From: Holosporales bacterium
Lineage (GTDB): Bacteria; Pseudomonadota; Alphaproteobacteria; Holosporales; CAZGKG01
Assembly (NCBI GenBank): GCA_044361745.1
Contig: JBIKIF010000002.1
Span: 23,119-87,118 of the forward strand
Length of the DNA: 64,000 nt
Direction: 5' to 3'
Below are positions 52,848 to 53,466 of this stretch, piece by piece (the first letter of the stretch is position 1; each line of letters starts with the position of its first letter). The position numbers and the translations under genes were made by a program. Below the pieces are notes generated by a model, which worked only from the letters and a program-made list of their open reading frames with translations, ran no database searches and had not been told where the DNA came from.

Positions 52848-52868
52848 CTGAGGACTTCCTTTATTTGC

Positions 52869-53138
52869 TTAGATAAATAAATCTGCATGGGTGCCTGTTC
52901 TTTCACAAATGATACAACCCTCTATGGGTTTGTAAATGAGCAGCCAATCCGGTTCAACATGGCATTCGCGGCGCCCTCCATAGGATCCGGAAAGCCCATG
53001 GTCTTTGTGTTTCACCGGAAGCGGTTGCGCGCTCAGAATCCGCTCCATCACCTTTTGAATTTTTGTTAAATCTTTGCCGTGTTTCTGAGCGAGTTTCATA
53101 TCCCTTTTAAATTGTCCAGTGTAAACAAAATCAAACAT
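52869..53138 (-). CDS. yafQ: Type II toxin, YafQ/RelE-family mRNA interferase
   Basis: 89 aa. …YTGQFKRDMKLAQKHGKDL…LPVKHKDHGLSGSYGGRRECHVEPDWLLIYK…ERTGTHADLF parallels E. coli YafQ almost block for block. Confidence 0.85.
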   Translation of the reverse strand: MFDFVYTGQFKRDMKLAQKHGKDLTKIQKVMERILSAQPLPVKHKDHGLSGSYGGRRECHVEPDWLLIYKPIEGCIICERTGTHADLFI

Positions 53139-53140
53139 TG

Positions 53141-53395
53141 TTAAAGAGTCTTCAAAAAATCTTGGACTGTTTCACCGCGAGAGAGATCCTTCTCTTGATC
53201 CGTGGTTTCAAAGGTTTTTCGGGTCAGAGAATTCGGAATTTTAACATCAAAGGGAAGACCATGATGGAGCCGGACTTGGTGAAGAAAAAGCTGTATAGCG
53301 TCTGACATGGAAAGCCCCAACGTTCCGAGTAAAGTCTCCACCTCCGTCTTGAGATGGGGATCAATACGTGCACGTACAGTTTCTGTCTTGCTCAT
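53141..53395 (-). CDS. dinJ: Type II antitoxin, DinJ/RelB family
   Basis: 84 aa. …VRARIDPHLKTEVETLLGTLGLSMSDAIQLFLHQV…GLPFDVKIPN… parallels DinJ. Its stop lies 2 nt before the yafQ start. Confidence 0.85.
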   Translation of the reverse strand: MSKTETVRARIDPHLKTEVETLLGTLGLSMSDAIQLFLHQVRLHHGLPFDVKIPNSLTRKTFETTDQEKDLSRGETVQDFLKTL

Positions 53396-53423
53396 TGTCC
53401 AGTTCTCCTCAATTCTTGGGAAA

Positions 53424-53449
53424 ATTGTAGCATTTTTGGGCTACAATTA
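53424..53449 (-). promoter_or_regulatory. Candidate DinJ-YafQ operator (perfect inverted repeat)
   Basis: AATTGTAGC-N8-GCTACAATT is a perfect 9-bp inverted repeat. It sits 30-55 nt upstream of the dinJ start, in the 71-nt ctaC-dinJ gap, with a GAGGAG RBS downstream. Confidence 0.4.
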
Positions 53450-53466
53450 CAAGGGGTATTCGCTCT

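Follow-up and report, generated by a model that had tools for sequence, protein, structure and literature searches.

An uncultured alphaproteobacterium carries a toxin-antitoxin (TA) cassette of the DinJ-YafQ family between ctaC and ctaD, the genes for subunits II and I of an aa3-type cytochrome c oxidase. The locus lies in a 64-kb stretch of DNA from a Holosporales bacterium (GenBank assembly GCA_044361745.1, contig JBIKIF010000002.1, positions 23,119 to 87,118 of the forward strand), which is called the window in the following and from whose position 1 all coordinates are counted. Close sister strains possess the same genes without the cassette. We regard it as probable that the locus as a whole is best explained by a self-contained DinJ-YafQ cassette that was horizontally acquired, replaced the native ctaC-ctaD spacer, works as in Escherichia coli and is a selfish passenger.

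The DinJ-YafQ pair and its neighbours

On the minus strand, ctaC (54258..53467, 263 amino acids (aa)) is followed after a gap of 71 nucleotides (nt) by dinJ (53395..53141, 84 aa), after 2 nt by yafQ (53138..52869, 89 aa) and after 21 nt by ctaD (52847..51246, 533 aa), which starts with GTG. This order, the three gaps and the GTG start are exactly as given in a preliminary description of the locus. CtaC contains the COX2 and COX2_TM domains and scores 209.7 bits with TIGR02866 (cut-off 147.7), and CtaD contains the COX1 domain and scores 709.1 bits with TIGR02891 (cut-off 670.75); both are recognized by equivalog-level models as subunits II and I of an aa3-type cytochrome c oxidase. DinJ is assigned to the RelB/DinJ family of ribbon-helix-helix antitoxins (PF04221 RelB, 51.9 bits, cut-off 22.4; TIGR02384 RelB_DinJ, 62.2 bits, cut-off 45.65). 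YafQ belongs to the YafQ family of mRNA interferase toxins (PF15738 YafQ_toxin, 103.4 bits, cut-off 30, spanning residues 4-88 of 89) and within the RelE/ParE superfamily it is matched by TIGR02385 RelE_StbE (81.2 bits, cut-off 27.9). No second copy of DinJ or YafQ was found in the window, and an Rfam scan of the entire window matched no RNA family.

YafQ shares 51% identity with E. coli YafQ and aligns end to end with structures including PDB 4ML2 (E = 1e-24). Its residues H47, H60, D64, R80, H84 and F88 correspond to H50, H63, D67, R83, H87 and F91 of the E. coli enzyme, and all six are conserved. By mutagenesis it was shown that toxicity and mRNA cleavage by E. coli YafQ need H50, H63, D67, H87 and F91 (PMC4652777), and R83 is a conserved active-site residue (PMC7584586). 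DinJ is 32% identical to E. coli DinJ (4ML0/4Q2U, E = 4e-10), and the segment VRARID in the strand of the N-terminal ribbon-helix-helix, i.e., the DNA-reading strand, is identical in both proteins. The strong similarity to the E. coli pair that had been proposed earlier holds for YafQ, while that of DinJ is only moderate; both proteins are best regarded as family members and not as orthologues of the E. coli pair. Both TA reading frames are intact and of full length, and the yafQ DNA is identical in all contigs that bear the cassette. The pair can with good support be described as a DinJ-YafQ module of type II that is complete and apparently intact.

Filled and empty alleles of the ctaC-ctaD spacer

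The 90%-identity cluster of CtaC includes two variants of 262 aa, and the contigs encoding them (L172-L179) show the gene order murG, a hypothetical gene, ctaC, ctaD and xseA, which is the order of the window minus the TA pair. In these strains 131 nt separate ctaC from a ctaD of 535 aa with an ATG start, and the DNA flanking this empty site is 96-99% identical to the window. An uninterrupted ctaC-ctaD, which according to the preliminary description should be looked for in related genomes, is found here in sister strains. The same description had named an ancestral TA pair, or a normal separation of the two genes in this lineage, as what would speak against an insertion; the closely similar flanks of the empty sisters indicate neither. 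Filled and empty alleles coexist in one community, as sample ERZ27247972 contains a contig of either kind (L004, filled; L178, empty).

According to blastn and alignment, homology to the empty allele ends at 53483-53485 and returns at 52843. The segment without homology to the empty allele (52844..53482, minus strand) is ~640 nt long with 44% GC and consists of a new ctaC tail with its stop codon, the promoter/operator spacer, dinJ, yafQ and the 21-nt spacer that gives ctaD its new ribosome-binding site and GTG. The sequence that it replaces measures ~153-156 nt in the sister strains (L172 6775..6930; L178 1089..1241). The breakpoints are uncertain by at most 17 nt on the left (53483..53467) and by ~5 nt on the right (52848..52843), where GTGA-CCCATGATG is possibly homologous with ATGA-GCCATT-CCCATGATG of the empty allele. 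Whichever breakpoint holds, the alignment shows the native spacer to be missing together with its ribosome-binding site, and the native ATG is either lost or altered to GTG. Both neighbouring genes have changed ends: ctaC terminates with KGGS and a stop codon (263 aa) versus AEG in the empty allele (262 aa), and the N-terminus of CtaD reads MTHDA versus MSHSHDD. The native spacer of the empty allele contains a perfect palindrome, TTCAGTC-A-GACTGAA (L178:1145-1159), and a promoter-like site, TTGGCA-16-GAAAAT (L172:6806-6833). Both are absent from the window, so that any regulation of ctaD that they provided would have been lost with the replacement.

The comparison supports the view that the cassette is a derived insertion at this site and a recent gain. 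The two empty types share one homologous 131-nt spacer, which argues for gain, since a deletion could not create that sequence. In ctaD the filled lineage falls within the diversity of the empty ones: it differs at 10-12 positions from the L178 type, while the two empty types differ from each other at 20-22. A survey of 151 other alphaproteobacterial loci with ctaC and ctaD revealed a spacer below 300 nt in all but one and DinJ/YafQ in none (0/151), in agreement with the earlier statement that the two genes are commonly adjacent in alphaproteobacteria. In the nearest outgroups (L181, L182) ctaC and ctaD abut. Scans for closer relatives by CtaC found none, the best identity being 59% among genome contigs and 58% among metagenome contigs.

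The cassette appears to be foreign and to have been acquired horizontally in one lineage of this uncultured alphaproteobacterial species, because its GC content and its GC content at third codon positions (GC3) are low, the nearest YafQ homologues are only 68% identical and homologues are scattered across phyla and plasmids. The cassette has 44% GC and a GC3 of 0.42-0.43, as compared to a GC3 of 0.57-0.62 in ctaC and ctaD. The nearest YafQ homologues are encoded beside a plasmid RPA replication gene, beside DUF5338 or beside metabolic genes, and more distant ones are spread over Legionella, Leptospira, Chloroflexi and 390 plasmids. A donor of the cassette was not found, and the plasmid homologues are all below 60% identity. 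The cassette does not qualify as a transposon, an insertion sequence or an integron cassette: repeats of more than 7 nt were not found on its two sides, yafQ is followed by 21 nt only, and housekeeping genes adjoin it. The 7-nt direct repeat ACCCATG is found at the 3' end of yafQ (52886-52892) and in codons 2-3 of ctaD (52838-52844), and the empty allele contains the 9-nt repeat CCATGATGA twice, 54 nt apart (L172:6878-6886 and 6932-6940). These repeats may represent microhomology of the rearrangement, or chance. As another mode of entry, a recombination tract from a divergent donor was considered and rejected, as the flank mismatches are not clustered at the junctions in a pattern common to both empty types.

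Some further observations concern the neighbourhood and the surveyed loci. Downstream of ctaD this species has a gap of ~390 nt (window 50854-51245) followed by xseA, and the oxidase unit consists of ctaC and ctaD only; in the outgroup L182, ctaG and coxC come after ctaD. Between murG and ctaC the window encodes on the plus strand (54385-55143) an acidic Ser/Glu-rich protein of 252 aa that apparently has a signal peptide and is matched by no Pfam family. Its gene contains two copies of a 78-nt tandem repeat (54651-54806), and its counterpart in the L172-type strains has 205 aa. The DNA identity in this region is 79-90%, compared to 95-99% in the flanks, which marks the gene as hypervariable. 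In the genome survey, L011 and L031 are two long loci in which the oxidase genes are not adjacent. L011 (metagenome-assembled genome (MAG) SW_33) has an opposite-strand open reading frame of 426 aa after ctaC (6870-8150, minus strand), with a weak F-box-like match below the Pfam cut-off (E = 1.5e-3) and no ctaD within 6 kb. In L073 (6820-8332) the CtaD match falls into two pieces in different frames, which suggests that the gene is frameshifted in this MAG or that a sequencing error occurred.

Operator, promoter and expression of ctaD

The spacer upstream of dinJ contains the palindrome AATTGTAGC-N8-GCTACAATT with perfect 9-nt arms (53448..53440 and 53431..53423; whole element 53423..53448). 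The palindrome of the preliminary description is thereby real and perfect, and its coordinates, given as 53424-53449, were one base off. It overlaps the -10 element of a sigma-70-like promoter candidate on the minus strand (53424..53452), which is composed of TTGTAA (53452..53447), 17 nt and TACAAT (53429..53424) and has a TG extended -10. The ribosome-binding site GAGGAG, also noted before, is located on the minus strand at 53410..53405, 9 nt before the ATG of dinJ.

The core of the palindrome, GTAGC-N8-GCTAC, occurs once in the 64-kb window, where 0.01 occurrences are expected. It was found upstream of dinJ in all homologous TA loci that were fetched, i.e., in four independent loci with unrelated contexts, as ATGTAGC-N8-GCTACAT (L166 and L169), CGTAGC-N8-GCTACA (L170) and TGTAGC-N8-GCTACAATT (L171). 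In E. coli K-12, dinJ is preceded by TGTTGC-TCATTTGA-GCTACAAT directly before the LexA box, which has the same 20-bp geometry and one mismatch in the core TGTAGC-N8-GCTACA. The -10 hexamer TACAAT is common to the cassette and to the operator region of E. coli dinJ, and the DinJ operator described for E. coli is an inverted repeat of 20 bp that overlaps the -10 element (PMC9592637). Because the core recurs in E. coli as well as in the four homologous loci, the palindrome can be assigned to the cassette itself as its own operator. It appears to be the autoregulatory operator of the family that would have arrived together with the genes. A ribbon-helix-helix N-terminus encoded behind a palindrome over its own promoter is what is expected of an antitoxin gene.

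The arrangement closely resembles dinJ-yafQ of E. coli K-12 (b0226-b0225), where the antitoxin gene also precedes the toxin gene with a 2-nt gap and the catalytic and positioning residues of YafQ, the VRARID strand of DinJ and the 20-bp operator TGT(A/T)GC-N8-GCTACA overlapping TACAAT are the same. The systems differ in the inner operator bases and in the sequence of DinJ, which as mentioned is only 32% identical and does not reach the equivalog model. In addition, E. coli has the LexA box CTGAATAAATATACAG between promoter and dinJ, whereas direct reading of 53396..53466 revealed neither CTG-N10-CAG nor the alphaproteobacterial GTTC-N7-GTTC, i.e., no sign of an SOS-regulated dinJ. The E. coli locus is solitary between dpaA and yafL and not part of an operon.

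At the other end of the cassette, the 21-nt yafQ-ctaD spacer (52848..52868, minus strand) supplies AAGGAAG (52861..52855) 7 nt before the GTG of ctaD, as the preliminary description had recognized when it placed a ribosome-binding site and the GTG within 21 nt of the yafQ stop. This spacer shows no homology with the native leader of ctaD. A second promoter-like match is present in the 3' part of yafQ (52909..52936, minus strand; TTTACA, 16 nt, TATCAT, 10/12), ~60 nt upstream of ctaD. It is a candidate only, and promoter-like matches are common locally, with 8 in a 3.7-kb region versus 3.8 expected. No terminator-like sites were seen at the ctaC-dinJ and yafQ-ctaD junctions, and the junction RNA folds no better than shuffled controls. 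All genes are on one strand, the distances to ctaC and ctaD are 71 and 21 nt and nothing there resembles a terminator, so that the TA pair is presumably co-transcribed with both neighbours. Expression of ctaD would then run through the TA module, an idea that is strengthened because the native leader is gone, the cassette provides the ribosome-binding site and the GTG, and no terminator-like site intervenes.

The following sequence of events is proposed. A cassette consisting of promoter, operator, antitoxin gene and toxin gene would have entered one lineage by horizontal transfer and replaced the native 131-nt ctaC-ctaD spacer, whereby a few codons were trimmed at each gene end. As in E. coli, DinJ dimers, alone or with YafQ, most likely occupy TGTAGC-N8-GCTACA over the -10 element, which would repress the cassette's own promoter. 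DinJ would neutralize YafQ, and free YafQ would cleave ribosome-bound mRNA. ctaD would probably be translated from two kinds of transcripts, one originating from the ctaC promoter by read-through of dinJ-yafQ and one starting at the TA promoter, and both would use the ribosome-binding site and GTG supplied by the cassette; transcripts of ctaD might in addition start at the promoter-like match within yafQ (52936..52909). Most parsimoniously, the cassette is regarded as a selfish passenger without a designed link to respiration, whose position inside a valuable operon would make an imprecise deletion costly.

Alternative explanations and related systems

Several observations weigh against the explanation by a self-contained, functional and recently acquired cassette. 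By stricter models both proteins are divergent: YafQ scores 75.1 bits with the NCBIfam subfamily model TIGR00053 (cut-off 87.25), and DinJ 22.5 bits with NF008412, the E. coli-level DinJ equivalog (cut-off 96). A second filled haplotype (L004, L005) differs from the window by A>G at 53442, which turns GTAGC of the left operator arm into GTGGC, and by the amino-acid replacements S2I and S56A in DinJ (window 53391 and 53230); these differences may reflect a relaxed constraint on antitoxin and operator. The operator RNA could form a weak hairpin followed by UUUU, which might attenuate read-through from ctaC. At the cassette neither terminal repeats nor a target duplication nor a recombinase was found, and protein searches of the databases returned no CtaC with 65-97% identity, so that the event is not datable by intermediates.

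That the arrangement is a chimeric assembly artefact has to be considered, as the organism behind the window is uncultured and the related contigs were assembled from metagenomes. However, six contigs with an identical yafQ were found, and the five listed, which come from five samples (Logan SRR27421689 and SRR2962415; ENA k119, k141 and NODE contigs, i.e., differently named assemblies) and represent two haplotypes, all show the same arrangement and junctions. The recurrence in different samples therefore argues against an artefact, for which only a negligible chance is left. The TA pair could also be ancestral at this site and have been deleted in the sister strains, as decay and loss of TA loci are known and as relatives between 65% and 97% CtaC identity, which could polarize the event directly, are missing. 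This is very unlikely in view of the homologous 131-nt spacer in both empty lineages, which the filled allele lacks and which could not be created by deletion, the nested position of the filled lineage in ctaD, the adjacent ctaC and ctaD without TA in all outgroups and the foreign composition of the cassette.

Two further explanations accept the gain and differ in what the cassette does. It could be an inert or decaying remnant, with an inactive toxin and no autoregulation, that does no more than lengthen the spacer neutrally, ctaD being co-transcribed across it. The only polymorphisms within the cassette, two nonsynonymous changes in dinJ and one in an operator arm, would fit such a remnant, and frequent decay of chromosomal TA systems was reported, e.g., for ccdO157 (PMC7167474). 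On the other hand, the dinJ and yafQ frames, the six functionally important residues of YafQ, the DNA-reading strand of DinJ, the operator, the -10 element and the ribosome-binding site are all intact, the yafQ DNA is invariant across the filled contigs from five samples and the operator variant of L004 and L005 hits the same half-site position where the functional E. coli operator deviates; an inert remnant is hence unlikely, albeit the least so of the alternatives. Conversely, the cassette could have been co-opted, with its autoregulated promoter/operator controlling ctaD such that synthesis of subunit I and respiration follow the toxin:antitoxin ratio or stresses that degrade DinJ. The native leader was deleted together with its promoter-like site and the palindrome TTCAGTC-A-GACTGAA, the ribosome-binding site and start codon of ctaD are cassette-derived and no terminator separates yafQ from ctaD, all of which would suit such a role. 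Yet these features are indistinguishable from passive read-through, the operon does without the cassette as filled and empty strains share sample ERZ27247972, analogous cases are held to have no functional link to their host operon (PMC7167474), and the counts of in-frame AAA-A/G, the target of YafQ, are unremarkable (6 in ctaC, 4 in ctaD). Co-option of this kind is considered distinctly improbable. Improbable as well, though slightly less so, is a TA-gated respiratory switch in the wider sense, in which the cassette controls oxidase subunit I and the operon is also 'addicted', as an imprecise removal would silence ctaD.

A selfish DinJ-YafQ passenger would not be without parallels. In E. coli, mazEF and yafNO occupy the intercistronic regions of relA-mazG and dinB-yafP, the bicistronic operons being undisturbed in strains without them (Fraikin et al. 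2020, PMC7167474), and parDE is found in relA-mazG of Salmonella; such insertion sites are plastic and the mechanism of integration is unknown (PMC7167474). The locus described here has in common with relA-mazEF-mazG and dinB-yafNO-yafP that a co-directional TA pair lies between two genes that form a bicistronic unit in TA-less strains, that its presence varies among close strains, and that neither recognizable integration machinery nor an evident functional link to the host genes exists. The flanking genes are adjacent in the close TA-less strains (L172-L179) and likewise in the 151 other loci. It differs in its host, which is ctaC-ctaD, the core of an aa3-type oxidase, in its TA type, which is DinJ-YafQ and not MazEF, YafNO or ParDE, and in that the native spacer was replaced and not split, with the ribosome-binding site and start of ctaD coming from the cassette. 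The TA system between folA and apaH is comparable as a chromosomal TA in a short intergenic region that holds another short sequence in TA-less strains, with polymorphism at the strain level and a plastic site; in contrast, folA and apaH do not encode subunits of one enzyme, the toxin is CcdB and that system was reported to decay.

Within the survey, the only other of the 151 loci with a long spacer (~1 kb) is L012 (MAG MFD05580.bin.c.4, 1.46-Mb chromosome), where ctaC and ctaD are separated by a co-directional tandem of two DUF29 paralogues at 6792-7722 (PF01724, E = 5e-44 and 6e-46). As in the window, small accessory genes occupy the ctaC-ctaD spacer of an alphaproteobacterium, which indicates that this spacer tolerates passengers, but they belong to an unrelated family of unknown function and are not a recognized TA pair.

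A literature search for TA systems within cta operons yielded no report. The earlier impression of an undescribed arrangement is upheld to this extent, but it does not extend to the configuration as such, as TA pairs within bicistronic operons had been described (PMC7167474). As proteins, DinJ and YafQ are unexceptional within the RelB/DinJ and YafQ families, and a TA in an operon is already known in kind. What is new is the cta operon as host of a TA and the replacement of the native leader, such that the downstream gene needs cassette sequence for the initiation of translation.

The main value of the locus is its clean pair of filled and empty alleles, its components being otherwise ordinary. 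How chromosomal TA cassettes integrate and move is still unexplained (PMC7167474), and outside enterobacteria it is rare to find, coexisting in a single sample, filled and empty alleles whose flanks differ by ~1-2%. The locus provides breakpoints at base level, which point to a replacement and not to a simple insertion. The operator core TGTAGC-N8-GCTACA, common to E. coli and this lineage, constitutes a testable prediction for recognition by DinJ. A downstream gene of an essential type here takes its translation signals from a selfish element, and filled and empty strains represent a natural experiment on whether a selfish TA passenger alters the expression of a core respiratory enzyme.

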